From a virus (Duplodnaviria; Heunggongvirae; Uroviricota; Caudoviricetes), in the IMG/VR virus record IMGVR_UViG_3300013121_000010, positions 77,903-141,902 of that record: a stretch of 64,000 bases of DNA; one strand, 5' to 3'. Below are positions 28,566 to 57,096 of this stretch, piece by piece. Position 1 is the first letter of the stretch, and every line of letters begins with the position of its first letter. The position numbers were made by a program, and so were the translations under genes. Below the pieces are notes generated by a model that saw only the letters and a program-made list of their open reading frames with translations, was not told the origin of the DNA and did not search any database.

Positions 28566-29777
28566 TTATAAAATCTGTTTAGCTGGACCTTCAACAAAAT
28601 ATCTAGGTCTACCAGATAAGTCTGTTACCTGTTCTTTTGGGTTAATTCCACCGTGTAGTAGAATAGTATTTAGTAAGTCAATAGGTTGATAGCTTTCAGA
28701 TTTTGGAGCCATACCGTCTTTGTCCACTTCACCAATTACGGAGCCTCCAAAATTACCGCCACCTAGCATTAAAGGCACCGCTCTTGCCCAGTGGTCGCGT
28801 CCAGAGTCCTTATTTATTAAAGTTCTGCCAAACTCGGTTGTGACGACAACCAATGTATCTTTAAGCATACCACGGTCACGCAAGTCTGTCAATAGGGCAG
28901 CTACGCCATTATCAAGTTCTGGACCGCGATTTTCCCAACCATTCTTAATATTTTGGTGCATATCCCAACCACCACTACCAATAGTTACAAATCTAACACC
29001 ATTTTCAACAAGTCTACGAGCTAACAAACAAGATTGACCAAATTGAGTGGAACCATATAACTTATGCATAGATTCAGGTTCGTTCTTAACTTCAAAAACT
29101 TCTCTTACACCACCGATAAGCATATTCTTACCTTGTGTTTTATAACCATCAATATCATTAGCTGTTCTAGTGCCCTTAAACTTTGTATCCATTTGTTCTA
29201 ACATATAGAAACGTTGTGCGAAACGTTCTTTTTCAAGAGAAAGTTGTAAATTCTTCTTTCCTTCTGCACTTACACTAAATGGATTATATGTAGAACCAAT
29301 AAAGGAAGCACCTTCTGCGTGCAATCTGCTAGTAGCTACATAAGCTGGAATGCCACTATTATTTGTTGGCCCATACTTATATGAGAAAATAGCACCAATA
29401 CCAGGGTGATTGATTTGTTCTTCTCCTGTACTATTATAGCCGGTCATTGTATAGTGACTAGCACTACCATGCGAAGCGTTATTGTGTCCATAATTATGTA
29501 CTAAACTATAAGTATCACTTATATTAGCTAATTTTGTAAAAGTGCCACCTAAAAGAAATCCGTTTCTTGTTTTATTATAACCTGTTACAGATAAAGCTCT
29601 TTCATTTACGCTATCTTTACAAATAAACGATTCTTGATGAGAAGCTCCACCTTGCAAGAAAATAAATATAATTGATTTTCTACCAGTTTTTACTTGTTCT
29701 GCATCAATTATATTATTTAATCCAAAACAACTAAAACCACTTAAAATACCAGCTTGCACAAAAGTTCTTCTATCCAT
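28566..29777 (-). CDS. DUF1501-like protein with an N-terminal twin-arginine (Tat-like) signal
   Basis: MDRRTFVQAGILSGF Tat-type leader; GSGGWDMHQN...TTEFGRT blocks typical of the DUF1501 family (sulfatase/phosphatase-like fold, abundant in Planctomycetes and Verrucomicrobia). Confidence 0.5.
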   Translation of the reverse strand: MDRRTFVQAGILSGFSCFGLNNIIDAEQVKTGRKSIIFIFLQGGASHQESFICKDSVNERALSVTGYNKTRNGFLLGGTFTKLANISDTYSLVHNYGHNNASHGSASHYTMTGYNSTGEEQINHPGIGAIFSYKYGPTNNSGIPAYVATSRLHAEGASFIGSTYNPFSVSAEGKKNLQLSLEKERFAQRFYMLEQMDTKFKGTRTANDIDGYKTQGKNMLIGGVREVFEVKNEPESMHKLYGSTQFGQSCLLARRLVENGVRFVTIGSGGWDMHQNIKNGWENRGPELDNGVAALLTDLRDRGMLKDTLVVVTTEFGRTLINKDSGRDHWARAVPLMLGGGNFGGSVIGEVDKDGMAPKSESYQPIDLLNTILLHGGINPKEQVTDLSGRPRYFVEGPAKQIL

Positions 29778-30510
29778 TTTTTATTTTCTCCGAAACTTTA
29801 CAACATAAATATTTAAATAAATCTTCACTTAAACCCATTTTCATGATATTTATATGTTTATGAACCCATTGAACATTATTTTCTAAATAACCTATATTAG
29901 AATCAATTCTATCTAAAGAAGCTGTTATATCAAAATCAAAACCAATATAAATTGGTAAGTCAGATAAAGCACATTTAAAGTTTTGTTTTTTTAATAAATT
30001 ATCTATATATTCTATAGAAATTTTAAATTCAAGATTTCTCTTTTTAGCATTATGATAAATACCATTAAAATATGTTCCAGTTACATATTCACAGCCTTTA
30101 TAATTAAAGCTTTTACGACCAGAAAAATTTAGTGTTTTACATTTTACACAACCAATATCGCGTTCTATATCACTTACTCTTTTTTTTATTATATCATTAC
30201 ATAAACATACGACTATATATGTATTATCATTGATATCATAATCAGCTATTATGAAACCAGAATTAGTTATATCTCCAATTTTATATTTTCTTGTACTTAC
30301 TATAAAACACTTTTTACAAACTTTACTATGGTTTAATCTTTTTAGATTGTAATCAATAACATCTATTACAATACCACATTTACATCTACATTTATAGTAA
30401 TGCCTTTTATTTTTGATAAAATGAGATTCAACGGTAAAATATCCGTATTTTTTATTTATTTCTAAATTTATTTTCTCTTGAGATTTTTTAGGCATATCTA
30501 TCTTATACAC
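29770..30510 (-). CDS. HNH_3-type homing endonuclease
   Basis: C-terminal ASLDRIDSNIGYLENNVQWVHKHIN motif of HNH_3 endonucleases; Cys-rich N-terminus. Confidence 0.5.
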   Translation of the reverse strand: MYKIDMPKKSQEKINLEINKKYGYFTVESHFIKNKRHYYKCRCKCGIVIDVIDYNLKRLNHSKVCKKCFIVSTRKYKIGDITNSGFIIADYDINDNTYIVVCLCNDIIKKRVSDIERDIGCVKCKTLNFSGRKSFNYKGCEYVTGTYFNGIYHNAKKRNLEFKISIEYIDNLLKKQNFKCALSDLPIYIGFDFDITASLDRIDSNIGYLENNVQWVHKHINIMKMGLSEDLFKYLCCKVSEKIKNG

Positions 30511-30527
30511 CTACTCCAAAATCTATG

Positions 30528-31556
30528 TTATATACACACAAAACTCCCACACTTAGGCAAATCTTTTAATCTAGAAGCACCAACATAAGTACAAGCACTA
30601 CGAACACCACCTTTAATTTGTTGTATTACTTTTGAAACTGGACCTTTGTATGGATATTTAACCTCAAAACCTTCTTCTGCTTTATATTCATCAAATTTAC
30701 CATAATACTTTTCCATCATTTTTCTTGATGACATTCCATACGCTAATAGAAAATCCTTATCATCAGATTGAGTGTATTCATTATATTTGTAAAACCAATC
30801 TCCATCACACTCATCTGTTCCGCCCAACATTCCATTGCCGAGCATAACAAAATCGGCACCGGCAACAAACGCTTTTACAACATCCCCAGGTTCCTTACAA
30901 CCGCCATCCGAGCATATATGGGCACCAAGACCGTGAGCAACATCAGAACATTCCATTATAGCAGAAAGTTGTGGAATACCAACACCAGTGACCTTTCTAG
31001 TAGAGCAGTTAGCACCGCTTCCTAAACCAACCTTTACTATATCAACTTTACCATTTATAATCAATTCTTGAGTCATTTCGCCAGTAACTACATTACCAGC
31101 CATTATTATAGAATCAGGACATTTATTGCGAATTTCAGCACAAAATTCAACAAACTTTTGTAAATATCCGTTTGGTACATCAATACATATAAACTTTGGC
31201 TTTTCATTATTTTCTATGAAGCATTTAAAATCACCGTAATCTTCTTCTCTAATTCCTAAAGTATAAAATGAATGTGAATAACCATCATCTTTACAATATT
31301 CACGAAGTACAGTATAGTCGTGAAACTTATGTAAGGCTGTTAAACATTGTTCATTTTTAAGAGCTTCAGCCATTTTGCGTGAACCAGTAGTTTCCATATT
31401 AGCTGCTATAATTGGAAATCCTCTCCAAGTCCTATTAGAATTCTTAAATGCAAAACTTCTATTTATATCTACATCTTTCCTAGAAGAAATTGTAGAACGT
31501 TTTGGTTTAATAAGAACATCTTTAAAATCTAGTAATCTTTGATATTCAATCTTCAT
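30528..31556 (-). CDS. guaC: GMP reductase (GuaC-like, IMPDH/GMPR family)
   Basis: FKDVLIKPKRSTISSR N-terminus, PIIAANMETTGS, GLGSGANCSTR and the active-site Cys loop. Confidence 0.75.
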   Translation of the reverse strand: MKIEYQRLLDFKDVLIKPKRSTISSRKDVDINRSFAFKNSNRTWRGFPIIAANMETTGSRKMAEALKNEQCLTALHKFHDYTVLREYCKDDGYSHSFYTLGIREEDYGDFKCFIENNEKPKFICIDVPNGYLQKFVEFCAEIRNKCPDSIIMAGNVVTGEMTQELIINGKVDIVKVGLGSGANCSTRKVTGVGIPQLSAIMECSDVAHGLGAHICSDGGCKEPGDVVKAFVAGADFVMLGNGMLGGTDECDGDWFYKYNEYTQSDDKDFLLAYGMSSRKMMEKYYGKFDEYKAEEGFEVKYPYKGPVSKVIQQIKGGVRSACTYVGASRLKDLPKCGSFVCI

Positions 31557-31561: not shown

Positions 31562-32425
31562 TTACTTATTTCCTGTAGGGACAGTCAAGAAAGGCATATT
31601 ATTAGAATTACCCATATATGTTGGAAGTTTACCATCCCACTTCTGTAAAGCTTCATATTGTAGGAGTTCCGGCTTTAAACTTTCCGTTAGTAGGCGGTTT
31701 GCTTCCGCATCAGCCTTAGCTTTTAATAGTCGGGCTTGTGCTTCACCCTCAGCCTTAGCTTCGGCCTGTCTAGCCTCAGCTTCAATCTGACGAACCTTAT
31801 TTTCTGCTTCAATAGCTAGATTAGTAGCTGTAATAGTTTTATTAATGCTTTGGCTAACAGTATTATCTACTCTAAATTCAGAAATAAAAGAAATATTATC
31901 TATAATAAAACCTTCGTGTTCAAGCTCTGCAACTAATTCATTTTTTACAATTTCAAGAAGCTTAGCCTTACCAACACCAAATATATCAGTAACCTTCATT
32001 TCGGCAGCGTGTTTATTTAATCCGTCTCTAACTTTTGTTCTTAAATAACCATGAGTTAAAGCATCTGCGTCTTTTCTAAACTTAACAAATATGTGAGGAA
32101 TTTTAGATTCCTGTATTTGGTATGCTATACCTACATCTACATTTAAACTAGCACCTTCAATACTATTAAATGTTACAGATTCATCTGTAGGTGAACCTTC
32201 TGTTGCATCCTTAGTCCAAACGGCATTTTGCATAAAAGTTGGAAACTCATAAATAACTTCTGTCATTGGGTTATAAAATACACGTCCAGTTACAAGTGGA
32301 GAATCTTCAACACCCTTACTATTACCATACATATTTACGCGAATACCAGAATGCCCTGGTTCGACATAAGTACAACCAACAAAACAAGAAATAAACGCAA
32401 GAGAAAGAAGTGTGTAAGCTTTCAT
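31562..32425 (-). CDS. SPFH/band-7 domain lipoprotein
   Basis: Lipobox LAFISCFVGC; C-terminal Ala/Glu-rich coiled region typical of HflK/C and stomatin. Confidence 0.65.
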   Translation of the reverse strand: MKAYTLLSLAFISCFVGCTYVEPGHSGIRVNMYGNSKGVEDSPLVTGRVFYNPMTEVIYEFPTFMQNAVWTKDATEGSPTDESVTFNSIEGASLNVDVGIAYQIQESKIPHIFVKFRKDADALTHGYLRTKVRDGLNKHAAEMKVTDIFGVGKAKLLEIVKNELVAELEHEGFIIDNISFISEFRVDNTVSQSINKTITATNLAIEAENKVRQIEAEARQAEAKAEGEAQARLLKAKADAEANRLLTESLKPELLQYEALQKWDGKLPTYMGNSNNMPFLTVPTGNK

Positions 32426-33137: not shown

Positions 33138-33956
33138 TTAAATCCTCTCTAACATATCAATTGAAACTTCTAATTGTTTTATAACTAAATCAATTTTACT
33201 TTTACTAACTTTATACTTAGTATATTCACACTTACTTATAGTTTTAGCTTCTTTATGAAAACTAACAGTGTTTTTATAGAACTTGTTTTTTTTGTCTTTT
33301 AACGCCAAAACACCTTTTGGTGAAACAGTTAATTTTGAAGCGTGTAACTTATAATTATCAAAGAAATTAAGTAAAGCTGTATTTTGTAATTTCATGTTAC
33401 ACAAATCTAGCCTATTTATACATTCAAAACTTTGCTTACCTTCCCATTTCTTATACCAAACTGATTCTGGTACTCTAAATAATTGATTAGCCCTTAAACA
33501 ATTAGGGTCAGGAGTTATACCTTTCTCATCAAACCAATGCCAAAGTTTACTTTGATATTCATTAAATTTACTTAGATGATATGTTAGGTTTTTATAGAAC
33601 CAAATAAGTTGAAAACCATTTCTAGTCTCTGTAACAACACTTGGTTTAACTGGAAAAGCCTTTATAACCTTCTCTGCTTTTTTCTTAAAAGTATTTACTT
33701 CTCTTAGACTTTTATATTTACCATTAGAATCTCTACCGGCGTCTAAGTCTAAAAATAAAGCTCTAAACTTTTTGATATCTTCAACTTTAGTGCCACCTTC
33801 ATTTAAGTAAAAATAAATATCTTTTCCATAATTAAGATTTTGCTTTACAATAAAATCATATTTTTGTGAAGTTTGCATTGGTGTTTTTTTTGTTAACCCA
33901 CCAACATTATAAAGTATATTTTTACCTAAAAACTTATCAAGAATACTATTATTCAT
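33138..33956 (-). CDS. hypothetical protein
   Basis: ORF only. Confidence 0.35.
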   Translation of the reverse strand: MNNSILDKFLGKNILYNVGGLTKKTPMQTSQKYDFIVKQNLNYGKDIYFYLNEGGTKVEDIKKFRALFLDLDAGRDSNGKYKSLREVNTFKKKAEKVIKAFPVKPSVVTETRNGFQLIWFYKNLTYHLSKFNEYQSKLWHWFDEKGITPDPNCLRANQLFRVPESVWYKKWEGKQSFECINRLDLCNMKLQNTALLNFFDNYKLHASKLTVSPKGVLALKDKKNKFYKNTVSFHKEAKTISKCEYTKYKVSKSKIDLVIKQLEVSIDMLERI

Positions 33957-34353
33957 TGTATAATTTTCCTCTTTCTACCCAATGTTCCTCAAACTTTGAA
34001 CATCCAAAACTTTCTACAAAAAAATCTCTAATCTTATCTTTTTCAAAAAAGTTACATGAATAAATATCTATTGTAGAAAACCTTTTTTCTTCACATGAGT
34101 GAATTTGCAAGCCACTGGTTATTAATCCTACCCAACCACTAACACCTGCCTTATCTGGATATAGTTCATAACGTTTACCATTTTTAAACTCACAAGGAGC
34201 ATGAATAACAATAGGTGGGGTCATTGCTGTCATACCTAATCTATAAACAGCTTCTTCAAGAAACCTATAATGTAACTCTAAATCATCACAAGCTCCAACT
34301 TTACAATCATAAGCATCTAACAAATAAGAATATCCAAATGGTTTATTATTCAT
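33949..34353 (-). CDS. speD: S-adenosylmethionine decarboxylase proenzyme (SpeH/SpeD class 1)
   Basis: DAYDC...L, GVSGWVGLITSGLQIHSCEE and IDIYSC blocks characteristic of the small bacterial AdoMetDC. Confidence 0.6.
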   Translation of the reverse strand: MNNKPFGYSYLLDAYDCKVGACDDLELHYRFLEEAVYRLGMTAMTPPIVIHAPCEFKNGKRYELYPDKAGVSGWVGLITSGLQIHSCEEKRFSTIDIYSCNFFEKDKIRDFFVESFGCSKFEEHWVERGKLYNE

Positions 34354-35890: not shown

Positions 35891-36403
35891 TTAATTCTCC
35901 AATAGGCGATTAGTCGCTTGATACATTGCAATTGCAGAAGCACACCCAACATTTAGAGAGCGAACACTCCCATACTGTTTAATATAGATTGTAGCAGTAG
36001 CTACGTCAAGTATTTCCTGAGGAACACCAACATTTTCTTCGCCAAAAGCTAAAAGAAAGTATTCACTAGGAAAAGTAAAAGTCGAAATATCAACAGCACT
36101 ACCAATATTGTCAACAGCGATGATTGGAACGTTTCTTGGTAATTCATCTACTTCCTTAACATGTTTAAAATTTGTATAGTTTTGAGTACCTACAGCACCC
36201 CTTCTATCAAACTTTTTACGTCCATATATAATAACTTCTTTAGCAAGAAAGGCGTTGGCATTGCGGATTACGCTTCCTAAATTCAAATCACCTTGTATAT
36301 TAGCACATATAACACCATAGTTAAATCTTTTTTCATTTAAATCTGCTAATATAGCCTCTGTTTTCCAATATTTATAATAGTCGATTACGTTTCGGTTGTC
36401 CAC
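35891..36403 (-). CDS. SpoU/TrmH-family RNA 2-prime-O-methyltransferase
   Basis: SPOUT motifs: LLAFGEENVGVPQEIL and SLNVGCASAIAMYQ. Confidence 0.7.
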   Translation of the reverse strand: MDNRNVIDYYKYWKTEAILADLNEKRFNYGVICANIQGDLNLGSVIRNANAFLAKEVIIYGRKKFDRRGAVGTQNYTNFKHVKEVDELPRNVPIIAVDNIGSAVDISTFTFPSEYFLLAFGEENVGVPQEILDVATATIYIKQYGSVRSLNVGCASAIAMYQATNRLLEN

Positions 36404-39200: not shown

Positions 39201-39229
39201 ATTATACCAGGAACTTAGCGTTCTGTCAA
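39201..39229 (-). promoter_or_regulatory. sigma70-like promoter TTGACA-17-TATAAT (minus strand) inside the 3-prime end of the Ro60 gene
   Basis: Reverse complement reads TTGACAgaacgctaagttcctggTATAAT. Confidence 0.55.
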
Positions 39230-40780
39230 GTCCGACATTTCCTTTGCATATCTTAAAATTCCGTCGCTCCATCCACCTAAGATATAAGTTCTGTCGTATA
39301 CTTCTGGCATAATAGTATCAGTATATCCAGCGACCTGCACAAGATATACATTTACCTTTGGATTGACGTTCTTTCTATAGGTGTTCACCAACATAGGAAC
39401 ATCAATACAATATGAATGATACCATAAATACTTTGAGTATTCATCTGGGTTCCTACCATAAAGTCCACCATGACCAGCTTGCATATCACTATAGATGAAA
39501 ACATTATCCCAATGTTCAGCTTTAGCTATAGCATCACGCCAAAACAACCAAATTCCATTTTCAGTTGATTTACCAATTCTGTTAGCTAAACTATTAGCAT
39601 TTTTTAAATCATCAAAAATACTAGAATTTTTGCGAATACTGAAAGTTTCCAGTTTATCACCAAAAACACCTAAATATCCATCATTAGAAACCTTACCAGT
39701 AATAATACCAGTTAAGTTCGCAATTTCAGATACCTTAACAGAACCATATTGACTAGTAGTTGTACCTTGTGCCGAACCACTATTATCGCAAAGCGACATA
39801 GTACGTCCTTTAAACTGAGGTAGTGAATGCAAGGAAATATTCAGGCAGTTTTCAATTGCATCCAAAACACTACCAGGAGCATTTACAGCTTTCAGTTCTT
39901 TGTAAGCCGTCCAATACCTAAACGGCAGTTGCTTACCTTTTTCGGCAGTTTTAACCAACTTATCTAGAACAACTTCCATATTAGCATTATTTTCAACAAA
40001 ATTTCTCAAATTGCGAAGTAATGCCATGTGCCCCATAACTGGAACGCATTCATCCCAACTTTTACCTTGAGAACGCATACTTTCCCAAGTTTCAGTATTT
40101 TTCAAAGTACCCTTTACAAGCCCATCAATAGCTGGTGTAGGAACAGGGTGAACCAAGTTAATAACATCTACTGTCTTAACTTCACGATTCTCCATTTTGT
40201 ACTTAGCAAGTTCATACTCACTAAATGTTGTTAAAACATAAGCTAAGGCTCGCTTTAAAGAGCTAGGGATAGCCACGCCTTTGAATGCGGACTTGTGATA
40301 AGCCACACAAACAGCAGGTTCATCCGCCCTCTTAACTATTTCCTTTGCATATCTGCGTATTAATTGAGTGCCTTTACTACCTTTATGGTTTGCAGCCCTT
40401 ACCAAAATAACTTGTGGTGTAGTTCTGATATTATCAGTATTACGCAAATGAGCGGCAAGTTCTAGAGTTTGTTTAACACTAAAATCTAAAGCCTTATCAA
40501 TACACTTCTCAAGAGTATTCTTAGCAGTATCACCTTCTAGCTCTACCAAAACCTTACCAAGTTGCTTAGTTAGGTCAAACTTAACCTTAAAAGTAGGAGA
40601 AGCCTTTTGAGTTTCTCCATAATAAGTTGGTTCGCCAAAGAAACAGCTTGCTGCTGCAACACGAAGTTTATGAATTGGATTGGAAATATCAAAGGATGTT
40701 CCATCCATAAAATTACGATGAGAGTTCTTATGAACTCTCTTTTCGTTTAGTGAGTTTACTCTTTTAGAATTTACAGCCAT
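39215..40780 (-). CDS. rsr: Ro60/Rsr orthologue (TROVE domain plus C-terminal vWA with MIDAS)
   Basis: N-terminal TROVE-like ...AAASCFFGEPTYYGE...; C-terminal vWA with DxSGS MIDAS (LCDNSGSAQG); 521 aa, matching Ro60 domain order and size. Confidence 0.6.
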   Translation of the reverse strand: MAVNSKRVNSLNEKRVHKNSHRNFMDGTSFDISNPIHKLRVAAASCFFGEPTYYGETQKASPTFKVKFDLTKQLGKVLVELEGDTAKNTLEKCIDKALDFSVKQTLELAAHLRNTDNIRTTPQVILVRAANHKGSKGTQLIRRYAKEIVKRADEPAVCVAYHKSAFKGVAIPSSLKRALAYVLTTFSEYELAKYKMENREVKTVDVINLVHPVPTPAIDGLVKGTLKNTETWESMRSQGKSWDECVPVMGHMALLRNLRNFVENNANMEVVLDKLVKTAEKGKQLPFRYWTAYKELKAVNAPGSVLDAIENCLNISLHSLPQFKGRTMSLCDNSGSAQGTTTSQYGSVKVSEIANLTGIITGKVSNDGYLGVFGDKLETFSIRKNSSIFDDLKNANSLANRIGKSTENGIWLFWRDAIAKAEHWDNVFIYSDMQAGHGGLYGRNPDEYSKYLWYHSYCIDVPMLVNTYRKNVNPKVNVYLVQVAGYTDTIMPEVYDRTYILGGWSDGILRYAKEMSDLTER

Positions 40781-44640: not shown

Positions 44641-44649
44641 AACGGCAAG

Positions 44650-44741
44650 CGGAAAGTAAGGGAATCGAACCCTCATTGCATTTTCAGGTGCAACCTAGTT
44701 TTCAAGACTAGTGCGACCTACCAATAGTCGCCAATCTTTCC
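44650..44741 (-). tRNA. tRNA-Ser (TGA), type II
   Basis: D stem GCGAC/GTCGC; anticodon stem CTAGT/ACTAG with loop CTTGAAA; variable stem TTGCA/TGCAA; T-arm GAGGG-TTCGATT-CCCTT. Confidence 0.55.
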
Positions 44742-46392: not shown

Positions 46393-46734
46393 AAGTGGAC
46401 CGGGCGGGTACTGCCCCCGCGTACTAAAATAAATTTAAAGATTTGAATAATATACAGGTTTCTTTAAGATTTTAAGGTAATCTTATAACCTACCTTACGA
46501 TTTGAATTTTAACTATTAAAGGTTTTAAGTTAAAACCACTCTAATTAAAGAGCAAATGAGTAATCGACGTTTTTGTTGCTCTTACGAGCAACTTTAGTGC
46601 TTGTTGCACTCAAACCACGAACACTGAACATACTATCGTTTGCTGTTACTTTTTTGACTGTTTTTAGGTAGCCTCAGCCTCTACCACCTGCCAGCACTTT
46701 AAATTTAAGCTAGGCGAATCTATTTCCGGCCCAT

Positions 46735-46775: not shown

Positions 46776-46809
46776 CTATCACAAAAATGTTGGCTTGTCA
46801 AACAAACCT

Positions 46810-47148
46810 TTATTCTACTTCATTATAAAGAGAATTTACTTCTTCTAATGTAAGTTCAGAACCAGTTTTTACTAAAGCTTCTACTAAATTTTCACCTTCT
46901 CTTCTCATAGCTTTAAAACCGCCTAAATGTTGACGAACTGCACGGCGTGCAACTTGTTTTTCCCAAAAGTTTGGATTCTTACTTGATTTTAAAGCATCAG
47001 AAGGTGTTTTCTTACAGTTTTTAAAATTACCAATTAAACTGGTAATAATATCCATAATTGTAAAAATCATAGATGGGTCGAAAGCAGCTTCTTTATCACC
47101 CAACTTATAGTTATCAACTACTTTAATTGATATGGATTGTAAAGACAT
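46810..47148 (-). CDS. hypothetical protein
   Basis: ORF only. Confidence 0.35.
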   Translation of the reverse strand: MSLQSISIKVVDNYKLGDKEAAFDPSMIFTIMDIITSLIGNFKNCKKTPSDALKSSKNPNFWEKQVARRAVRQHLGGFKAMRREGENLVEALVKTGSELTLEEVNSLYNEVE

Positions 47149-47153: not shown

Positions 47154-47501
47154 TTATCTCCTAGGTCCAATTCTATTACGACCTACGTTAACATCAACAT
47201 TAACACGACCACGATTAGCATCTCTTACTACTACTCTTTCTACAACATTAACATTAGCAGAATGATGATGACCATCTACAAAACGTTCTCTAACAATAAT
47301 TCTTTCTGCTGGAACTTCAACATGTTGAACAACTCTTACACGTTCTACAACAGGAGCTACAACTACACGTTCTACAACTTGTGCATGATGACCATGACCA
47401 TGTACAACTTGACGTTGAACTACAGCTTGTCCACAATTACCAGCAAAAGCTGTTGCAGCACCTAGAAAGAATACAACAAATGATACAATTAAACTCTTCA
47501 T
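47154..47501 (-). CDS. secreted His/Val/Arg-rich repetitive protein
   Basis: Signal peptide MKSLIVSFVVFFLGAATAFA; repeated V-V-E-R-V-V-V / H-G-H-G-H-H units encoded by acgttctacaac-type DNA repeats. Confidence 0.45.
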   Translation of the reverse strand: MKSLIVSFVVFFLGAATAFAGNCGQAVVQRQVVHGHGHHAQVVERVVVAPVVERVRVVQHVEVPAERIIVRERFVDGHHHSANVNVVERVVVRDANRGRVNVDVNVGRNRIGPRR

Positions 47502-47516: not shown

Positions 47517-48107
47517 TTACTCATACACCTTTTCTAACAACCACTCATAAACTAAAAGAACCTCTTCATCTGTTAAGTTACCACCTTTAGGCATTTTAGC
47601 TAAACCTCTCTCTTGAAGTTTATAACCATAAACTCTATCATAGGTTTTAATTCTATCAACTAAAGGTAAATCAACTAACTCATTGCTTTTTACTAATGAT
47701 AAACCATTATTTTGAGGAACAGAGCCATGACAATTAACACATTTCTTATTCCACAACGCTATTATTCTTGAATTAACAGATGGTTTTTCAGGGGTTTCTT
47801 CTGGTTGAGGCTCAGGTTTTACGCCACCTTTTAAAGCTCCAGACTCAATAAGCTTTAATAATAATTCTAATTTTGCTTTAAGCTCTTTAACTTCATCGTC
47901 CCTACTTTGATTTTTTTCCTGAACAAATTTTTCGCCTAATTGATAATAATAATCAGTTCCGCGAAAATATTCAGAATCAAATTGAACGGTTTTTTGTGGA
48001 ACTATTACCGTTTCAACCTTTTTTTGTACAAAATCATCTGCTGATAGATAAAAATTACCATAAGCAAGGAAAGCTATGGCAGCTAATAATATTTTACTTA
48101 CTTTCAT
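47517..48107 (-). CDS. secreted protein with a c-type cytochrome CxxCH motif
   Basis: Signal peptide; KKCVNCHG heme-binding-like motif; translationally coupled to the upstream 592-aa ORF. Confidence 0.45.
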   Translation of the reverse strand: MKVSKILLAAIAFLAYGNFYLSADDFVQKKVETVIVPQKTVQFDSEYFRGTDYYYQLGEKFVQEKNQSRDDEVKELKAKLELLLKLIESGALKGGVKPEPQPEETPEKPSVNSRIIALWNKKCVNCHGSVPQNNGLSLVKSNELVDLPLVDRIKTYDRVYGYKLQERGLAKMPKGGNLTDEEVLLVYEWLLEKVYE

Positions 48108-49882
48108 TTTTCTACATCCTCACTCTTAATAAACCCATTTTTACCATTATATTCTACACCTAACCAGCCTTCTACTGTACTATCTGTTTTTGATTTTTTA
48201 ACTTTTTCGCCAACTTTTAACATTTGGTTTACAGCTATTGTATTAGAATTAGGTGAAGTATAAATGTAAGTTTGTTTTTTAACAACATAATCAATAACTT
48301 TTACAGTCTCAACTTCTATAGCCACATCTTCTTTAACTATTTGTGTAAGACCATTGATTAAAATCATTGACTGTTGAAATAAACCAGGACGACCATCTTG
48401 ACCAGGATGTTCCCATACTTCACGTGGTATAGCTTCTTTATTAGATAGCAACAAAGCTAATCTAAAAGGAACCTTATTTTCTTCTATCTTATTTTCCTTG
48501 CTTAATCCTCTTATAAATTCAGCGGGTTCTAAACCACATTCAAAAGCAGCCTGTTCAAGAGTAATACCTTGATTGTACTTAGAAACTATACTTAAATAAG
48601 CCTTAGCATTTTCATCTGGTTTTAATCCATTTACTTTAGATAACGCTTTTTCAAATAACAATTGATGTTCTTCTATAGAATCCTCAAAGCGACCATCTAG
48701 ATAGACCCGTTTTGTTCTCAAATAAGTATCTTGGTCAGAAATATATGCTTTAGCTTTAGATTGTAATAATTCTTTTAATGAATTTTCACTAGGAATAGGA
48801 CCAGCAGCATGACAATCAAAACAACCGATAGGTGTTCTAACTCTAGCATCAGCAGTAACATCAGTAATATGACGTACTAATGTTGGGTCAGCAAAATCAG
48901 CAAGTTCTTCCTTGTCATTATAAAGGTCGTATACTTGTAATTTCATAAAATTAGTAGCAAATATTTCACCACCATCAAAAACTGTTGGTGGGCCACCTTT
49001 AAAGTCTAATATAGCATCACCATAATCTCTAAGACCTCTCATAAATTTAACATCATAACTTCTATAATACCAACCTAACTCTGTTTCATATCCTATTAAA
49101 GTTCTGTTATGTCTAGAAACCGCTTTAGATTTAGTAACTACCACGCCAAAAATATTGCCTATTTCAGCAGCTTTAGCGGTATCAATTGACCATGCTGTTT
49201 CAAATTCTTTTACTGTTGTAGGTATTTTATCTAAAGTACCATATAGAAATTCCTTATAAATCTTAACTTTAGAACCAGTATCGCTTTGTTTAGTTAAATC
49301 AGAAGCGTGAACGATAAACCAATCAGCACGCACAACAGCATTTCCAGAAATCAATCTAAGTAATGAATTGGCGTCGTGAGTAACGATAGGCTCAACAAAA
49401 TACCCATCTTCTGTACTCATTGATTCCCAGGCTTTCTCAGTCCAGTTGAATTCTCTTATATCTACCCACCATAATGTATCTGAACCAGGAACCTTTCTTA
49501 AAGCTTCAAACTTTCCATCTTCTGTTCTTCTTGCTAATGGATAAAAACCACCACCTTGAAAATCTTTAGTAACCGCACCTGTCAAGCTATGACATATAAA
49601 AGACAGAATTAAAGCTAAATCTTCTCTTGATTTTTCATCTTGTTCAGCATAAGTAGTAAAAAATCTAATATACTTTTTATCTTCTTCACTTTTAAAGTTT
49701 TCTTCTAAGAAAACAATAGCGTCCTTTACCTCTTGGTCTGGTGTTACCAACTTAGGTTTATTTTTTAATAAAGTTGCGGCTGGAAGTGGGGCAGCATCTT
49801 TTGTTTCTTGAGCAATAACAGTATTTACCACTATTAAAGATAGTAGTATTACAAATAAAATTATTTTCCTCATACTTATCAT
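48104..49882 (-). CDS. large secreted protein with a CxxCH motif, possibly of the planctomycete DUF1549/DUF1553 type
   Basis: Signal peptide MISMRKIILFVILLSLIVVNTVIA; GCFDCHAAGP CxxCH motif; 592 aa. Confidence 0.4.
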   Translation of the reverse strand: MISMRKIILFVILLSLIVVNTVIAQETKDAAPLPAATLLKNKPKLVTPDQEVKDAIVFLEENFKSEEDKKYIRFFTTYAEQDEKSREDLALILSFICHSLTGAVTKDFQGGGFYPLARRTEDGKFEALRKVPGSDTLWWVDIREFNWTEKAWESMSTEDGYFVEPIVTHDANSLLRLISGNAVVRADWFIVHASDLTKQSDTGSKVKIYKEFLYGTLDKIPTTVKEFETAWSIDTAKAAEIGNIFGVVVTKSKAVSRHNRTLIGYETELGWYYRSYDVKFMRGLRDYGDAILDFKGGPPTVFDGGEIFATNFMKLQVYDLYNDKEELADFADPTLVRHITDVTADARVRTPIGCFDCHAAGPIPSENSLKELLQSKAKAYISDQDTYLRTKRVYLDGRFEDSIEEHQLLFEKALSKVNGLKPDENAKAYLSIVSKYNQGITLEQAAFECGLEPAEFIRGLSKENKIEENKVPFRLALLLSNKEAIPREVWEHPGQDGRPGLFQQSMILINGLTQIVKEDVAIEVETVKVIDYVVKKQTYIYTSPNSNTIAVNQMLKVGEKVKKSKTDSTVEGWLGVEYNGKNGFIKSEDVEK

Positions 49883-49887: not shown

Positions 49888-50784
49888 TTAAGAAATCTTT
49901 GTTATTCTATATCCAGGTATTGAAATACTTTCTACATTACCATTTATAGAAATTATGGTAGTCTTAGAATCTTTCGGTGGTGGTGTTGGTTCAGGTTCAG
50001 GATTAGGTTTAGAAACTACTGGTTTACCATAAAGATTTTGTAATCTTGGTATATCATCATTTTGTTGTGGAACAGCTATAGAAGGTGAATAAATAGGAGC
50101 CATTAAAGCCGAATTTACTTTACTGTGTCTTAGACCTAAACCATGACAAATTTCATGTGTTGCCACATTCAATAAATAGATACCACGACCAGACTGACCA
50201 TTACCAAGCCAAAATTCATCTAAGTCAAACTTACCAGATAATCTACCCATAAAGTTAGATGTTGTTGGTAATTGAAACCAAGCTAAAGTACCACTTGAAC
50301 CATCAAAATCATCAGAGCGACCTCTACCAGTATCTAAAACCAAGTTAGATTGACTTAAAGAATTTACTTGTGTAAATGTAAGACCACAAATAGCAGATAT
50401 ATTATCAAAAGCTTTTTTTATAGTAGCAAACCACAATTCTTTTGACATATCACCATCAGTTGATGCTATAAAATAATTAAGTTCTTTCTTACCCCATTTA
50501 GCAAAATCACTTGCATTTTCAACAATATCTTCATCTTCATAAATATCTGGTAAACTACATCTTGGATAATCCATTATTCTTAATGTTTGACCATCAAGAA
50601 TTCCAGTTTGATTGATACCGGAAATAGATTGAAACTTATTTATTACTAATAATAAATCTTCTACAGATTTTACTTCTTTTCTTAAATATCCATACTTTTT
50701 AAGATAGGAAATAGCTTTATTTATATTTCCTTCATTTTTAATAGCAAAATCGGCAACCTTGTCAAAAAAATCTAAAATACTCAT
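49888..50784 (-). CDS. matrixin-like (M10) zinc metalloprotease with a peptidoglycan-binding-like prodomain and cysteine switch
   Basis: HEICHGLGLRHS (HExxHxxGxxH); PRCSLPD cysteine-switch-like motif; PG-binding-like N-terminal region. Confidence 0.6.
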   Translation of the reverse strand: MSILDFFDKVADFAIKNEGNINKAISYLKKYGYLRKEVKSVEDLLLVINKFQSISGINQTGILDGQTLRIMDYPRCSLPDIYEDEDIVENASDFAKWGKKELNYFIASTDGDMSKELWFATIKKAFDNISAICGLTFTQVNSLSQSNLVLDTGRGRSDDFDGSSGTLAWFQLPTTSNFMGRLSGKFDLDEFWLGNGQSGRGIYLLNVATHEICHGLGLRHSKVNSALMAPIYSPSIAVPQQNDDIPRLQNLYGKPVVSKPNPEPEPTPPPKDSKTTIISINGNVESISIPGYRITKIS

Positions 50785-50798: not shown

Positions 50799-51356
50799 TT
50801 ATTTATACACTTGTGATTGCAACTTTGCGTAATCAAAAAACATCCATCTTTTCTTTCTTTCTTTAAAACTCGGATTAACAGCAACATCTATAAGATAAGT
50901 TTTTAGTTTATCAAATGAATCGAAAAACCAATCATTTGGTAAGGTCCAAAAAAGCCAGTCTGGTAGTTTACCTACACCATCTTCACAAACAATTAATATA
51001 GGTTTTTTCTGTCTATTAGCTAAGAATATTTCTTCATAAGAACCGCATAAATGAAAATTCATGTCTATTTTACAAACTAAAAAATCAGAAACATCAACCA
51101 TTCTTAAATCTACAGCACGAACTTCTTTATCATTTAAAACTGGTCCGTAATCATTCATCATCTTAGCTTTTTGTCTTATATTTCTTATTTCCTTATTTTC
51201 TATACCAAAATTACATGGTTTATTAGTAGGGTCCATAACAACCACACCAATACTTCTTAAAAATGGAGTGATTTTTAATCTCCACTCTGTTCCACCATCA
51301 GGAACTCTATCCATACCACCACATAAATAACATCTATGATATAGCAATCTGCTCAT
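50799..51356 (-). CDS. nucleoside 2-deoxyribosyltransferase-like protein
   Basis: YLCGGMD...WR N-terminal motif and CGSYEEIFLANRQKKPIL catalytic-Glu region typical of PF05014. Confidence 0.45.
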   Translation of the reverse strand: MSRLLYHRCYLCGGMDRVPDGGTEWRLKITPFLRSIGVVVMDPTNKPCNFGIENKEIRNIRQKAKMMNDYGPVLNDKEVRAVDLRMVDVSDFLVCKIDMNFHLCGSYEEIFLANRQKKPILIVCEDGVGKLPDWLFWTLPNDWFFDSFDKLKTYLIDVAVNPSFKERKKRWMFFDYAKLQSQVYK

Positions 51357-51868
51357 TTATTTATTAAACCTCTATTGAATATTAATTTTATGTTTGAATT
51401 AAAACCATTATTATCTCTATTTTCAGCTTCTCTATCATACATTGTAAGAGTTGTAATACTATTTACAAACTTGATTTTAATAAAATCGCCGTTATGATAA
51501 GAATAATAGACTTTATTATTATAGTCTATAGTAACATCTAATCGTTGTTTTAGATAAAAATTTATTGGTTGAGGTGGCGAACTAGAACTTGATGTAAAAT
51601 TCTTAACTATATGCCAAAATTGTATTTTATCATCAGTCCAAAATATAGATTGGCAAAATATAGGTCTTAATGTTAAAAAACTTCTATCTATTCCTTCTAC
51701 AGGAAATACTTCATAAACTACAGTATCATCAAAGAAATAGTTTAATTCAAATAACTCAACTTTATTAGTGTTTAATATTTGTATATCGTCATTAGCCTTA
51801 CCTATTGTCGCCGTCACCACGAATAGTATTGTTATTAAGACGATTTGTAAGAGTTTTGAAGTTTTCAT
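51353..51868 (-). CDS. secreted hypothetical protein
   Basis: Signal peptide. Confidence 0.35.
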   Translation of the reverse strand: MKTSKLLQIVLITILFVVTATIGKANDDIQILNTNKVELFELNYFFDDTVVYEVFPVEGIDRSFLTLRPIFCQSIFWTDDKIQFWHIVKNFTSSSSSPPQPINFYLKQRLDVTIDYNNKVYYSYHNGDFIKIKFVNSITTLTMYDREAENRDNNGFNSNIKLIFNRGLINK

Positions 51869-52124
51869 CCATAATATCCTCTGCTTTCAAACCTAATTCA
51901 TTACAAAGTTGATATAAATACCAAAATACACCGCCAAGTTCCTTAGATATACCTTCCTTTGCTTCTTCTAAAGTCTTATCACCGCGAAGCACTTTTTTAA
52001 ATTTATTTGATGTTTCTCCAACCTCACCAGCAAGACCAATAATCGTATAGGATATTGCTGGTAAACTTCCAGTATTACAATCTGGATAAACAGCTAGTTT
52101 TTTAATATTTTGTTGATAACTCAT
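51798..52124 (-). CDS. mazG: MazG-like nucleotide pyrophosphohydrolase
   Basis: IIGLAGEVGE EVGE motif; 108 aa. Confidence 0.65.
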   Translation of the reverse strand: MSYQQNIKKLAVYPDCNTGSLPAISYTIIGLAGEVGETSNKFKKVLRGDKTLEEAKEGISKELGGVFWYLYQLCNELGLKAEDIMDENFKTLTNRLNNNTIRGDGDNR

Positions 52125-52691
52125 TTACTTTTTCTCCTCTGGTGCAGGTAATTGTTTTTCTGATTTGAAGAAAATCATTTTTCTTGGACTATATTCATAC
52201 CAAACCTTTTCAGATTTACTATATTTTAAAGTTGTACCTAAGATAAAATCATTATCACCAAATTCTAAATAAGTAGCTGGAACATTAGTTCCTTTAAAAT
52301 AATATTGTTTATCTTCACCTTTAAGTATTGTAAATCCATTTATTTCAATAGCTGACTTTTCATCCCTTTTAATAGATTTATATTCTATCAAGTCTACAGG
52401 CCATTGTTCTTTAATAATTGAATAATCATTTATTCTTAAAATAATAGAATTATCATCTTCTCTAACCCTATATTTACCTTCTACTTTTACCCAAACATTA
52501 TCTTCAAAAATTTCTTTTTGTTTTGTATCATTATTATTATAAATACTATATTCATTATTAAATGCATAAATACCTACATTACCATCTAAAGACTTAAAAC
52601 TCCTATCCTTATAAAGTTTTACAACCAATTCGTCACAAAAAACAGTAGAACTAAACAACAATAATAAAATACTACTTAATAAAGTTTTCAT
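52125..52691 (-). CDS. secreted hypothetical protein
   Basis: Signal peptide MKTLLSSILLLLFSSTVFC. Confidence 0.35.
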   Translation of the reverse strand: MKTLLSSILLLLFSSTVFCDELVVKLYKDRSFKSLDGNVGIYAFNNEYSIYNNNDTKQKEIFEDNVWVKVEGKYRVREDDNSIILRINDYSIIKEQWPVDLIEYKSIKRDEKSAIEINGFTILKGEDKQYYFKGTNVPATYLEFGDNDFILGTTLKYSKSEKVWYEYSPRKMIFFKSEKQLPAPEEKK

Positions 52692-53187
52692 ACCAATCAG
52701 GTGACTTTCGCCCCTTCTCCCATTTACAACCAGTTTTCATTTCATACCTTTTAACAAGATTATAATAATTGCGGTATCCCGCAACACTATCATTTAAATC
52801 AATACATTCATTACCATACTTGCCAAAACATTGAGGTATAGCTAAGCCTTTATTAGTATAGCTCTTTAAACGAAAAAATCCAGCCCATTCCAAAACAGAA
52901 TGGCTGGCGTGTTGTTTTCCATATCTGAATATGTATTCAGTTGATATAGCTAAACCATGAGTAAGTGCCCACTCATAATTATCTTCACTATCTTGACACC
53001 ATAAAACAGTTGGGTGTTTTAAATGTGGTTTATTTTCCTTATATGGTATATCTGCTTTATAAGTACCCATATTATGATGAGCAAAACATAAAATTTGTGC
53101 GGTTTCCAACACCATTTTATGTACATGTCTATCACATAAAAATTCAGCAGCTTTTACTGGATTGTTATCTAGTCTAAATATATTCAT
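52672..53187 (-). CDS. hypothetical protein
   Basis: ORF only. Confidence 0.35.
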   Translation of the reverse strand: MNIFRLDNNPVKAAEFLCDRHVHKMVLETAQILCFAHHNMGTYKADIPYKENKPHLKHPTVLWCQDSEDNYEWALTHGLAISTEYIFRYGKQHASHSVLEWAGFFRLKSYTNKGLAIPQCFGKYGNECIDLNDSVAGYRNYYNLVKRYEMKTGCKWEKGRKSPDWYENFIK

Positions 53188-54595: not shown

Positions 54596-56716
54596 TTAAT
54601 TCTCCTTATTTATTTGCTTGATATAATCTAAAACATCATCATTTACATGATTAACATATTTTAACATTGGATATGTCTTAAATATATCTGGTATTTCAAC
54701 AGCTTGTTCATTATAAGTAATAAACTTTTTGTATAAATTATAATAATATACAGCTTTATTACCTTCATCTGATATGTATTTTAAAATACTTTTATCAAAA
54801 TTTCTTATGTGTTTATGTATTTTTACTAATATTTGCCTGTAATTTTTATCAGTTTTATCATAAAAATAACACATTTTCAATATATCATCGTTGAATAAAT
54901 CTTTGATATAATCTTTTAACTTTATTAACTTAATAGACTGAGATTGTTTTTCTTTATTTTTTCCTTTTAATTTAATACCTATGAGTGAAAATTTACTTCC
55001 GCTAATATTTAATAAATCATTATGATATGTTGTAAAAACATCAGGGTTAATACCATCTATATTAAGTGTATTATCAAGTAAAACATAACAGCTATATTTT
55101 TTAACGTCAAAATTGTTTATTTTGTTCCAAAAACGACACTTACCTCTACTTCTACTTCTATAATAACCACCATAATATTCTTTATATTCATAATATTCTA
55201 CATCTTCATTTTTAATAGTAGAATTTTTATGTTTTTTAGGCATTGGTAATGCACTAACTTTTGTAAAAGTGAATGAGTCCGGTAAACCTATTGTTTTTAT
55301 AGCGTGTTTTCTAGCATTATCATTATTTTTGAAATCAAATAGATAAATTACATTATATTTTTCACTATTATTTCTTAAGAATTCTTTACTTCTACTAAAA
55401 AATGAATTATAACTATCTAATTCTATAAACAATTCTTTACCAGAAAATTCGTAAAAACTATTTTCTATATTATTAGATTTAGAAGAATCTTTTCTTAAAC
55501 TCTTAATTACATAATTATTATTCTTATTTTGATAATCTATATTTCCAGTATTTTGAGTTTTTTCAAGAGAAATACCATTCCAAATAAGATTTGGTCTATA
55601 ATAAAACAATTCAAAATTAAGATTATTATACTTAACTCTAGCTTCATATAAACTTTTACAAGAACTAATTTCTTGATTATATTCACTTACAATTTTATTG
55701 TATATATTATCTATTCTTTCTTGCAGTTTACTTATAGTTTTATCATCATAAGATAAATGTTCTCTACTTGGAGTTATATCTAACTCACCAATATTAAACT
55801 TAATTATAATACATTTTAATTTTTTGTTGTATTTACTATCTATTGGATAAACAATATTTCCTATTAAAGCACAAGCTCCATTCTTAATATTTTTATCTAC
55901 ATAATAATCACCACAATCTTTATAAGAAAGCCTGTATTCTTCAATTCTTTTAGATAAAAGTGAATCGCCTACAAACACAGGAAGTTTATTAAAATATTTG
56001 TATACATCAAATATACTACTAGTAAAATTATTTATATCAGTAATATCCACATTTACTTTTATAAGCAAACCGTTTTGCTCATCGCAATCAGTTTTACTTA
56101 CCATATTTATTTTAGGTATACCATTATTAAGATAAGCAGTATAGATATACTTTATACCATTCCAGTAAGAAGTAACAGTAAAATTATCTGTATAAGCAAA
56201 TGGGCTTTTACTACCTAAACCCATACAACCAACATAATCATTACTTGTTGTTTTATTACTAAAGAAATATTGAGTATACAATTGTTCAATAAATTCTGGT
56301 GATAAACCAGTACCAAAATCCCTGATAGAAAACCAAGGTTCGTTCCTGTTTGGTATATGAACTATATAATTATGCTCTTTTAAGTCAGATAAATTATAGT
56401 TTGGATATTTTTCAAGCAAGGAAAATTCATTATCTATAAATTCCTTTGAAAATAAATCACTATCAAGGTTGATAAAATTAAAAAATGGTAAATTATTTTT
56501 TATTAATGTATGAAAACGACTTACTTTCTTAGCATCAATTGTAGCATCATTAGCATTTGTGCTAAGTTCTCTTACAACAGCCAGAATTTTGTTAGAGTAT
56601 ATATTATCAGATAGAATCTTAAAACTCTTTGCGTTAGCACGAATAGTAAAGTCTTGACTTGTATTATTACTATTGACCAATTCTATAGTAGATTCTTCTT
56701 TGTTTAAAATAGCCAT
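54596..56716 (-). CDS. rIIA: rIIA protein (GHKL ATPase N-terminus)
   Basis: N-terminal SQDFTIRANAKSFKILSDNIYSNKILAVVRELSTNANDA closely parallels the T4 rIIA N-terminus (...[29 protein letters not shown]). Confidence 0.8.
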   Translation of the reverse strand: MAILNKEESTIELVNSNNTSQDFTIRANAKSFKILSDNIYSNKILAVVRELSTNANDATIDAKKVSRFHTLIKNNLPFFNFINLDSDLFSKEFIDNEFSLLEKYPNYNLSDLKEHNYIVHIPNRNEPWFSIRDFGTGLSPEFIEQLYTQYFFSNKTTSNDYVGCMGLGSKSPFAYTDNFTVTSYWNGIKYIYTAYLNNGIPKINMVSKTDCDEQNGLLIKVNVDITDINNFTSSIFDVYKYFNKLPVFVGDSLLSKRIEEYRLSYKDCGDYYVDKNIKNGACALIGNIVYPIDSKYNKKLKCIIIKFNIGELDITPSREHLSYDDKTISKLQERIDNIYNKIVSEYNQEISSCKSLYEARVKYNNLNFELFYYRPNLIWNGISLEKTQNTGNIDYQNKNNNYVIKSLRKDSSKSNNIENSFYEFSGKELFIELDSYNSFFSRSKEFLRNNSEKYNVIYLFDFKNNDNARKHAIKTIGLPDSFTFTKVSALPMPKKHKNSTIKNEDVEYYEYKEYYGGYYRSRSRGKCRFWNKINNFDVKKYSCYVLLDNTLNIDGINPDVFTTYHNDLLNISGSKFSLIGIKLKGKNKEKQSQSIKLIKLKDYIKDLFNDDILKMCYFYDKTDKNYRQILVKIHKHIRNFDKSILKYISDEGNKAVYYYNLYKKFITYNEQAVEIPDIFKTYPMLKYVNHVNDDVLDYIKQINKEN

Positions 56717-56733
56717 AATTTTCCTTTCTTTTT

Positions 56734-57096
56734 TTAATTACGATTAAAAATTCTTCTACGTCTCTTCTGTTCTTCTTCAATTCCAATTAAATCAATGACT
56801 TCTTGGCGTGAGCGTGGCCCAGGCTGTAGTGACTTTATAACTTTCCCATCGTCACTCAACCTACTAATTTGAGGTATGTATTTAAATCCATTTTCATTAA
56901 ACAATTTAAAACCTTCCTCGGTATCTATTGATACTTTTTTTATACGTTTAGATTCAATCAAATCTTTTATGGTAGATTCTTGTGTTTTACAAGGTCCACA
57001 ACTCACAGAACTAAAAAAGATTACTTCGTCTGCGGCGGTAAAACTGCCTGTAAGTAATAGTAAAATAAATGTCAGGGCTTTACTTTTCATTTTCAA
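56734..57096 (-). CDS. secreted thioredoxin-fold protein (CGPC)
   Basis: Signal peptide followed by SCGPCK thioredoxin active site. Confidence 0.55.
   Translation of the reverse strand: MKMKSKALTFILLLLTGSFTAADEVIFFSSVSCGPCKTQESTIKDLIESKRIKKVSIDTEEGFKLFNENGFKYIPQISRLSDDGKVIKSLQPGPRSRQEVIDLIGIEEEQKRRRRIFNRN

Follow-up and report, generated by a model that had tools for sequence, protein, structure and literature searches.

Some bacterial periplasmic heme enzymes are served by a small cytochrome c, as in the cytochrome c peroxidase (CCP)/MauG-type systems, and c-type cytochromes depend on the periplasmic maturation system of the host. The nutrient-scavenging genes of marine phages include those for PhoX/PhoD-type phosphatases, which are exported by the twin-arginine (Tat) route, and those for PhoH/PstS. 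A DUF1501/PSCyt1-DUF1549-DUF1553 gene module has been described by Kamneva et al. 2012 (PMC3542564). A metzincin/TIMP-like pair of phage origin is known from Listeria monocytogenes, where it modifies the cell wall and promotes lysis by phages (Boichis et al. 2021, PMC8235301). Apart from this metzincin precedent, our literature search found nothing on DUF1501, M10 proteases or the gene cassette described below in phages, and it found almost no reports of c-type cytochromes in phages. Here we analyzed 64,000 nucleotides of an uncultured tailed phage (IMG/VR record IMGVR_UViG_3300013121_000010, positions 77,903 to 141,902; hereafter the window). A first-pass annotation of this DNA had named six genes for secreted or periplasmic proteins, namely a DUF1501 protein, two CxxCH proteins, a matrixin, a thioredoxin and an SPFH lipoprotein, and all six were found where it had placed them, on the minus strand.

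Our analysis points, with about an even chance of being correct, to two independent exported phage modules accompanied by ordinary or orphan genes. Module 1 is built around DUF1501, and module 2 would encode a periplasmic heme-protein pair that acts on the envelope. Module 2 is predicted to form one operon from ~51.9 to 46.8 kb, and between 51356 and 46810 the genes are 5-15 nt apart or, once, overlap by 4 nt. The features of this cassette are as follows.

50799-51356, minus strand: p185, a cytoplasmic protein encoded by the first tightly linked gene upstream of the matrixin gene; no Pfam match
49888-50784, minus strand: pro-matrixin of family M10 (Peptidase_M10, 95.6 bits, plus PG_binding_1)
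48104-49882, minus strand: p592, the 592-aa exported CxxCH protein (C354, C357, H358), with a C-terminal SH3b domain
47517-48107, minus strand: exported mono-heme cytochrome c of 196 aa, heme predicted (Cytochrome_CBB3; CxxCH at residue 123)
47154-47501, minus strand: p115, an exported repeat protein rich in Val, Arg and His; a Cys lies close to the N-terminus of its mature form
46810-47148, minus strand: p112, a small non-exported helical protein encoded by the last cassette gene
46792-46808, minus strand: terminator-like hairpin that would end the cassette operon (consensus scan only)
46801-46773, minus strand: near-consensus promoter for a tmRNA (consensus scan only)

Of the operon's products, the latent pro-matrixin and the small p112 would be cytoplasmic, and p592 (by the Sec route), the translationally coupled cytochrome c and the repeat protein p115 would be exported. 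The tmRNA lies directly after the cassette (46393-46732, minus strand) and was detected with Rfam RF00023 (50.1 bits, gathering score 47; E ~1e-18); ARAGORN was silent at this position.

The cassette recurs in very different uncultured phages and is previously undescribed. We examined 17 cassette loci (L001-L013, L017, L101, L182 and L183; 30-68% GC) in T4-like and lambdoid-like contexts and in genomes of 250-595 kb, L101 being a 595-kb phage. In all 17, a p592-like gene was immediately followed by the gene of a signal-peptide cytochrome c, often with overlapping codons; in the window, the p592 gene overlaps the start of the cytochrome gene by 4 nt. A signal-peptide repeat protein, rich in V/Q/R or in G/Y, was encoded third in every complete locus except L017 (that is, in L001-L011, L013, L101, L182 and L183). 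The p112 gene has syntenic homologs in L002, L003, L004 and L006 and, by position, also in L005 and L007. No family match was obtained for p115 in Pfam, PHROGs, NCBIfam or PADLOC, nor for p112 in NCBIfam or PADLOC. A protease without a signal peptide was encoded upstream of the p592 homolog in most loci. It was of the M10 type and directly upstream in L001-L004, L006 and L007, and two genes upstream in L183; a papain-like sequence was found as the upstream protease in L011, L013, L017, L101 and L182, for which Pfam support (Peptidase_C1) was marginal in L182 and weak in L101, with no match in L017. Some of the loci add a secreted trypsin-like protease.

The p592 family is large and was in a phage context at every place where we looked. 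Its 92 close homologs are all metagenomic, many of them on contigs of 130-190 kb, and a profile search of 1.84 billion representatives yielded 3661 matches at E<=1e-3 and 628 at E<=1e-30. The sole match among GenBank phages was the 595-kb uncultured phage LR756511.1, and patterns derived from the close alignment detected no close relative in 185,579 species genomes. No match to p592 was found in Pfam (E<=0.1), NCBIfam, PHROGs or PADLOC. The public gene call (P0001, 575 aa) begins 17 codons later, which would remove the signal peptide; the homologs at the other loci all start with signal-like N-termini, which favors the longer open reading frame (ORF).

The CxxCH motif of p592 was invariant in 38 close and 35 distant homologs, down to 22% identity. 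The alignments contained no conserved Met or second His; Y209 and Y436 were conserved, and R185, D187, W188, Y209, D277 and E306 in the N-terminal half were invariant. AlphaFold2 gave a confident model (pLDDT 87.6), in which the confidence falls around residues 340-380. The SH3b domain resembles the cell-wall-binding domains of lysins. By eye only, the p592 homolog of L182 (6001-7947 on a 165-kb contig) has an SH3-like insert midway along its length and not at the C-terminus; if this insert is real, the link of the p592 family to wall-binding SH3 domains would be recurrent.

The first-pass annotation had described the two CxxCH genes as a coupled pair. In the 108 minus-strand ORFs of the window, the CxxCH motif occurs three times against 0.22 expected by chance: once in each of the overlapping, adjacent genes for p592 and the 196-aa protein and once, presumably incidentally, in an HNH endonuclease (1219-1914, minus strand). 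The 196-aa protein begins with a signal peptide, continues with a coiled-coil and Pro-rich linker and ends in a CxxCH...MP domain that scores 27.9 bits with Cytochrome_CBB3 (cutoff 27). C123, C126, H127 and P173 were invariant, and the MP motif was present in all 10 sequences of the alignment. Among its cassette relatives, nine of 10 matched Cytochrome_CBB3 and five of 10 matched PSCyt1 (best 5.2e-5); for the five most distant cassettes the numbers were five and one. The window protein itself had no PSCyt1 (PF07635) match at E<=0.1. Judged by its sequence, the 196-aa protein is a true cytochrome c, exported, predicted to carry one heme and probably of the PSCyt1/cbb3 type. The earlier description of both CxxCH proteins as cytochrome-like thus stands for this protein but not for the core of p592, which matched no solved cytochrome fold. 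An assignment of the repeat-rich N-termini to the planctomycete YTV family was also considered and discarded, as none of 10 proteins matched Pfam YTV.

The matrixin is a zymogen by its sequence. A PG_binding_1 prodomain (residues 26-71) is followed by the cysteine switch PRCSLPD, the zinc site HEICHGLGLRH and the Met-turn ALMAP, and R75, C76, H210, E211, H214, H220 and M228 were invariant in 30 homologs. We found 156 homologs, all metagenomic and many on phage-sized contigs, and no match among GenBank phages. The cysteine switch and zinc site on which the first identification of the matrixin was based are therefore sound, but the protein has no N-terminal signal peptide and so is not secreted by that route: its N-terminus, MSILDFFDKVADFAIKNEG, is not hydrophobic and falls outside our heuristic signal list, and the homologs are alike in this respect. 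The phage matrixins (49888-50784 and its homologs in L001-L007) share a conserved C-terminal tail, IPGYR[VI]xK, after a Pro-rich linker. This tail may serve in docking or targeting, with the SH3 domain of the neighboring protein as a conceivable partner.

The signal-less proteases bear on the principal functional alternative, according to which module 2 would serve lysis or egress in an unconventional way: the protease would be released late, like an endolysin, and the SH3b/heme protein, the cytochrome and the repeat protein would weaken or breach the wall and outer layers. Canonical endolysins likewise have no signal peptides, and SH3b domains are typical of lysins. In small phages, moreover, the cassette occupies the usual site of the lysis genes, after RusA in the lambdoid-like L183 and just before the large terminase gene in L017. 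That the cassette is conserved from T4-like and lambdoid-like to huge phages speaks for a role in the life cycle and not in a niche, and a metzincin of phage origin sensitizes Listeria to phage lysis via the cell wall (PMC8235301). However, Pfam, PHROGs and NCBIfam identified no known muralytic, holin or spanin family in the cassette genes, and the T4-like genomes carry the cassette among early-type accessory genes and tRNAs. The PG_binding_1 match corresponds to the standard matrixin prodomain, and M10 and C1 peptidases are not known as peptidoglycan hydrolases. We are also unaware of any case in which heme proteins take part in lysis. Taken together, we regard a lysis function as rather unlikely.

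In the two-module reading, the Sec and cytochrome c maturation systems of the host would equip both CxxCH motifs with heme in the periplasm, and the small His/Met cytochrome would exchange electrons with the heme of p592. Because p592 has no conserved Met or second His, its heme would probably be five-coordinate or Tyr-ligated, which would make p592 catalytic and not a simple carrier. The SH3b domain would hold p592 at the peptidoglycan, where its substrate may be a component of the envelope or periplasm, the repeat protein of the operon being one candidate. The protease would act after reaching the periplasm, and the phage would presumably benefit from the whole reaction.

A farther-reaching proposal, to which we give a small but real chance, is that the trio of p592, cytochrome c and repeat protein, with the latent protease, represents new phage-specific envelope redox machinery. 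A wall-tethered heme enzyme without known relatives and with its own electron carrier would then, in phages from T4-like types up to those with 595-kb genomes, carry out oxidative cleavage or cross-linking of the wall or outer protein layers, for egress or exclusion, and this would be the first heme-dependent step in the phage infection cycle. The conservation of the heme-motif pair across unrelated phage types suggests a phage-run redox reaction in the host periplasm, and no current infection model has a periplasmic redox step.

The DUF1501 gene of module 1 lies 17 kb from the cassette in the window; it is listed here with its neighbors.

28566-29777, minus strand: Tat-signal DUF1501 protein, 403 aa (Pfam PF07394)
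29770-30510, minus strand: HNH homing-type endonuclease (phrog_3322, phrog_3118, phrog_374)
30528-31556, minus strand: IMPDH/GMP-reductase family enzyme (Pfam IMPDH, 207 bits)
31562-32425, minus strand: SPFH/Band 7 lipoprotein (Band_7, 65.3 bits; phrog_200 'lipoprotein', 2.4e-70)

The assignment to DUF1501 with a Tat signal was confirmed in both parts. PF07394 matched at 273.1 bits (cutoff 27, E 5.5e-81), with residues 33-401 covering profile positions 1-385 of 390. The N-terminus, MDRRTFVQ followed by a hydrophobic stretch, is a predicted twin-arginine signal, of which R3, R4 and F6 did not vary among 22 relatives from phages and cells. Also invariant were the motifs GGWDMH and GRDH (W271, D272, H274, G326, R327, D328 and H329), and this conservation across phage and cellular relatives shows that the predicted enzyme is under selection. 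These Asp/His motifs would fit a metal-dependent enzyme with a catalytic role. NCBIfam gave a trace of the alkaline-phosphatase-like YejM (E 0.008), consistent with our prediction of an alkaline-phosphatase-superfamily-like periplasmic enzyme.

DUF1501 is a widespread and unremarked gene of uncultured T4-like phages, where it occurs without PSCyt partners. It was essentially absent from GenBank phages (one partial match), and no PHROG covers it, yet at least 454 viral stretches in IMG/VR encode relatives, on contigs of 31-55% GC. We examined the neighborhoods of 80 of these loci (L102-L181). The rIIA/rIIB-like genes were recurrent neighbors. A second Tat-signal DUF1501 paralog lay just downstream of the first in 28 of the 80, a gene for a HesB/IscA-like 108-aa protein directly 3' of DUF1501 in 21, and a homolog of the p185 gene (50799-51356) upstream of it in 25, often abutting. 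A matrixin gene was near DUF1501 in seven loci and a GMP reductase gene in nine. In the window, the HNH endonuclease gene separates DUF1501 from the GMP reductase gene and is an insertion next to the former. IMPDH, Band_7 and DUF1501 genes are adjacent in L099/L100; in the related phage L099 this stretch has no intervening gene except one 63-aa ORF. A related 174-kb phage retains the adjacency.

A Tat-exported DUF1501 may have been acquired from a lineage of the Planctomycetes and Verrucomicrobia (PVC) type before it spread among uncultured T4-like phages. The finding of DUF1501 alone in hundreds of viral contigs argues that it can work without PSCyt partners. Beside the SPFH lipoprotein and GMP reductase, it may act on its own as a periplasmic hydrolase of the alkaline-phosphatase/sulfatase type during infection. 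The SPFH lipoprotein, whose N-terminal signal ends in a lipobox-like FVGC site, had been counted among the unusual genes; it matched 709 GenBank phage records and is ordinary for phages.

An abundant group of marine DUF1501 proteins of 412 aa (L015/L016, Tara/ENA contigs) is 40-42% identical to the phage protein. These contigs are co-directional, and the neighboring genes encode fatty-acid beta-oxidation proteins, a short RuvB-like ATPase and many hypothetical proteins. We dropped the assignment of this group to cellular organisms, and we did not use it as a host indicator, because its context is ambiguous and many such contigs are in IMG/VR.

Several points weigh against the two-module reading. 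Even in bacteria, neither DUF1501 nor its module has a known function (PMC3542564). Signal peptides were assigned by eye and with a crude hydrophobicity rule. The matrixin and the papain-like proteases, having no signal peptides, start in a compartment other than that of the heme proteins. DUF1501 lies directly 3' of the cassette in L004, and DUF1501 and the cassette are both present in the window's own genome, in L003/L102 and in the 174-kb contig. Finally, the core of p592 matched no heme protein and no solved structure (PDB), and its CxxCH motif could instead bind metal or form a disulfide.

This last point leads to an account in which p592 is a non-redox wall-binding enzyme or scaffold, its Cys and His residues serve a metal or a disulfide, and the cytochrome is independent of it. 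The core is unlike any cytochrome or heme fold, no distal ligand is conserved, and the six invariant residues of the N-terminal half (R185 to E306) could form a hydrolase- or lectin-type site. Against this, the exact CxxCH spacing is maintained even among the most distant homologs, p592 is exported, as heme c attachment requires, and a bona fide cytochrome c is always encoded by the next gene, often in overlap. The fall in model confidence at residues 340-380 is also what would be expected of an empty cofactor pocket. We therefore judge a non-heme role for the motif to be unlikely.

The linkage in L004, together with the occurrence of both DUF1501 and the cassette in the source genome of the window and at least two other phage contigs, would favor a single system. 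The first-pass annotation had taken this view, in which DUF1501 and the two CxxCH proteins are one auxiliary periplasmic system copied from a Planctomycetes/Verrucomicrobia/Bacteroidota host. Its link between DUF1501 and the first two of these clades was supported: in the 185,579 species genomes, the closest cellular relatives of the phage protein were overwhelmingly from Planctomycetota and Verrucomicrobiota (29-41% identity), and their genes are followed by those for a PPC-domain protein and a PSCyt1/Big_2/PSCyt2/PSD1 (DUF1549-DUF1553) protein, the arrangement known from bacteria (PMC3542564). The PSCyt1-like character of the small cytochrome in half of its relatives also agrees with such an origin. 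However, p592 is not homologous to DUF1549/DUF1553: a comparison by hhalign with 46 DUF1549-DUF1553 sequences gave a probability of 0.45%, and neither Pfam nor NCBIfam supported an assignment to PSCyt, DUF1549 or DUF1553. Pfam scans of ~50 window ORFs, including the DUF1501 neighbors and both CxxCH proteins, found no PSCyt1-PSCyt2-PSD1 domain. The cassette was within 10 kb of DUF1501 in just one of the 80 viral DUF1501 loci, where no CxxCH-bearing neighbor family recurs, and most cassette loci have no DUF1501 gene nearby. Homologs of the M10 protease and p592 repeatedly share contigs, and DUF1501 joins them on few only. The species genomes, as noted above, yielded no close relative of p592. 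With neither homology nor linkage in its support, the single-system view is weakened, and we consider it improbable.

The DUF1501 relatives and the PSCyt1-like cytochrome suggest a PVC host, a signal that arises in part because DUF1501 and PSCyt1 are most abundant in that clade. Should this link be borne out, the two modules might serve as markers for assigning hosts to uncultured T4-like phages.

The annotation had also described the region as rich in exported proteins, and in line with this all 17 signal- or transmembrane-like N-termini of the window, as called by the crude hydrophobicity rule, fall within 26.3-58 kb. Two of them are encoded just upstream of the cassette genes listed above.

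51353-51868, minus strand: exported protein of 171 aa, signal-like N-terminus; no Pfam match
52125-52691, minus strand: exported protein of 188 aa, signal-like N-terminus; no Pfam match

Ten proteins compared with the PADLOC defense models gave no match at E<=0.01, and on this ground a defense or anti-defense role was rejected.

DUF1501, cytochrome c and matrixin genes had no or almost no counterparts among 50,697 GenBank phage records, which could indicate that the region is cellular DNA, present as a mis-binned island or through chimeric assembly. All substantial ORFs of the 64-kb window, however, are on the minus strand, and the coding strand and composition are uniform throughout (GC 23-37%; a 30% GC phage overall). 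The region is flanked by and interleaved with rIIA/rIIB, tRNA arrays and T4-type nucleotide-metabolism genes, and the same gene orders occur on many independent contigs of 130-190 kb. A cellular origin is thus extremely improbable. Three window ORFs, DUF1501 among them, have identical proteins, all on one 148,730-bp JGI contig, and megablast of 22.8 kb of the window found no DNA relative among GenBank phages. The window belongs to a genome of roughly 149 kb, that of a distant, uncultured, aquatic T4-like myophage. It encodes rIIA (phrog_612, 8e-110), which is only ~32% identical to T4 rIIA, and rIIB, as well as ribonucleotide reductase, thymidylate synthase, NAMPT and RNA ligase. Further accessory genes are listed here.

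1892-2635, minus strand: PhoH
33949-34353, minus strand: S-adenosylmethionine decarboxylase
35891-36403, minus strand: SpoU-type methylase
51798-52124, minus strand: MazG
52672-53187, minus strand: DenV-like pyrimidine-dimer glycosylase

ARAGORN found 26 tRNA genes in several arrays (10079-45521, minus strand), and Rfam adds one further tRNA at 27620-27711. The tRNA at 44649-44741 was called Ser(tga) by ARAGORN and barely meets the Rfam tRNA-Sec threshold (47.3 versus 47). A TROVE/Ro60-like RNA-binding protein is encoded between the tRNA arrays (39215-40780, minus strand); no Y-RNA family reached the Rfam gathering score in this context. The NAMPT ORF (21526-24006, minus strand; 826 aa) matches NAMPT at residues 35-345 and 670-819, and the insert of ~320 aa, which matches PHROGs of unrelated enzymes, looks like an intein or a homing-endonuclease insertion. 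The large-subunit ORF of ribonucleotide reductase (4297-8349, minus strand; 1350 aa) matches that family at residues 507-1350 only and carries an N-terminal extension of ~500 aa without a family assignment.

The sixth gene of the initial set lies farther upstream.

56734-57096, minus strand: signal-peptide thioredoxin-fold protein with a TTG start and CGPC after a hydrophobic N-terminus

The CGPC motif and hydrophobic N-terminus are present as had been noted, and the Pfam match is marginal (PF00085, 24.4 bits versus 23.5). The ORF has no Met between its start and CGPC, and the hydrophobic stretch therefore belongs to the protein. We found no close relative in IMG/VR and weak matches, at ~30% identity, to thioredoxins of Proteus and Cronobacter phages. 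Comparison with CcmG/ResA/TlpA gave no match, NCBIfam yielding only generic thioredoxin and TrxC, both weakly, and a mature protein of ~98 aa would leave no space for the insert specific to CcmG/ResA/TlpA. Only plausibility ties this thioredoxin to cytochrome maturation. Beside it, two overlapping ORFs (57112-57414 and 57404-58039, minus strand) encode an N-terminal transmembrane helix followed by long coiled coils, a layout that is spanin- or holin-antiholin-like; 57404-58039 had no significant Pfam match.

Both modules offer subjects for further study. The p592 family, which numbers over 600 robust clusters and has neither an entry in Pfam nor a match in the PDB, is a well-defined structural and biochemical target. 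DUF1501 is one of the signature 'unknown' families of Planctomycetes and Verrucomicrobia, and viral contigs provide a simpler system in which to find its activity.

Among the closest known systems is the DUF1501/PSCyt module of PVC bacteria (PMC3542564). The phage DUF1501 is a true member of the family with a twin-arginine signal, its closest cellular relatives are in exactly this four-gene module, and the phage has, in addition, genes for two exported CxxCH proteins, one of them large and the other a probably PSCyt1-like cytochrome c. Unlike the bacterial module, the phage has no PSCyt2, PSD1 or PPC gene, its large CxxCH protein is unrelated by profile, and viral contigs usually keep DUF1501 and the CxxCH genes unlinked. 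The Tat export of DUF1501, its YejM trace and the presence of PhoH in the phage recall the nutrient-scavenging genes of marine phages, but DUF1501 is not known to act as a phosphatase or sulfatase, and this comparison is an analogy only.

The module 2 protease resembles the Listeria protease in that both are phage-derived metzincins whose genes neighbor those of exported envelope proteins. The Listeria metzincin, however, is secreted, acts in a Gram-positive host and is paired with a TIMP-like lipoprotein, whereas the window protease is an M10 zymogen that carries a cysteine switch but no signal peptide and is accompanied by heme-motif proteins. Eukaryote-type matrix metalloproteinases share with it the prodomain, the PRCxxPD switch, HExxHxxGxxH and the Met-turn, all invariant, but the window protein has neither signal peptide nor hemopexin domain and adds a phage-specific Pro-rich linker and IPGYRxxK tail. 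As for the heme-motif pair, p592 has no sequence or fold similarity to CCP/MauG or any solved heme protein. The phage proteins have one CxxCH each and are not di-heme, and they are phage-encoded, with an SH3b domain and a repeat-protein partner. The CCP/MauG-type systems are nevertheless similar in arrangement, with a small exported His/Met class-I-type cytochrome beside a larger c-heme-motif protein without a conserved distal Met or His. The finding as a whole is a variation on known phage auxiliary exported proteins and cytochrome-served periplasmic enzymes, and the uncharacterized p592 family at its center could prove categorically new.

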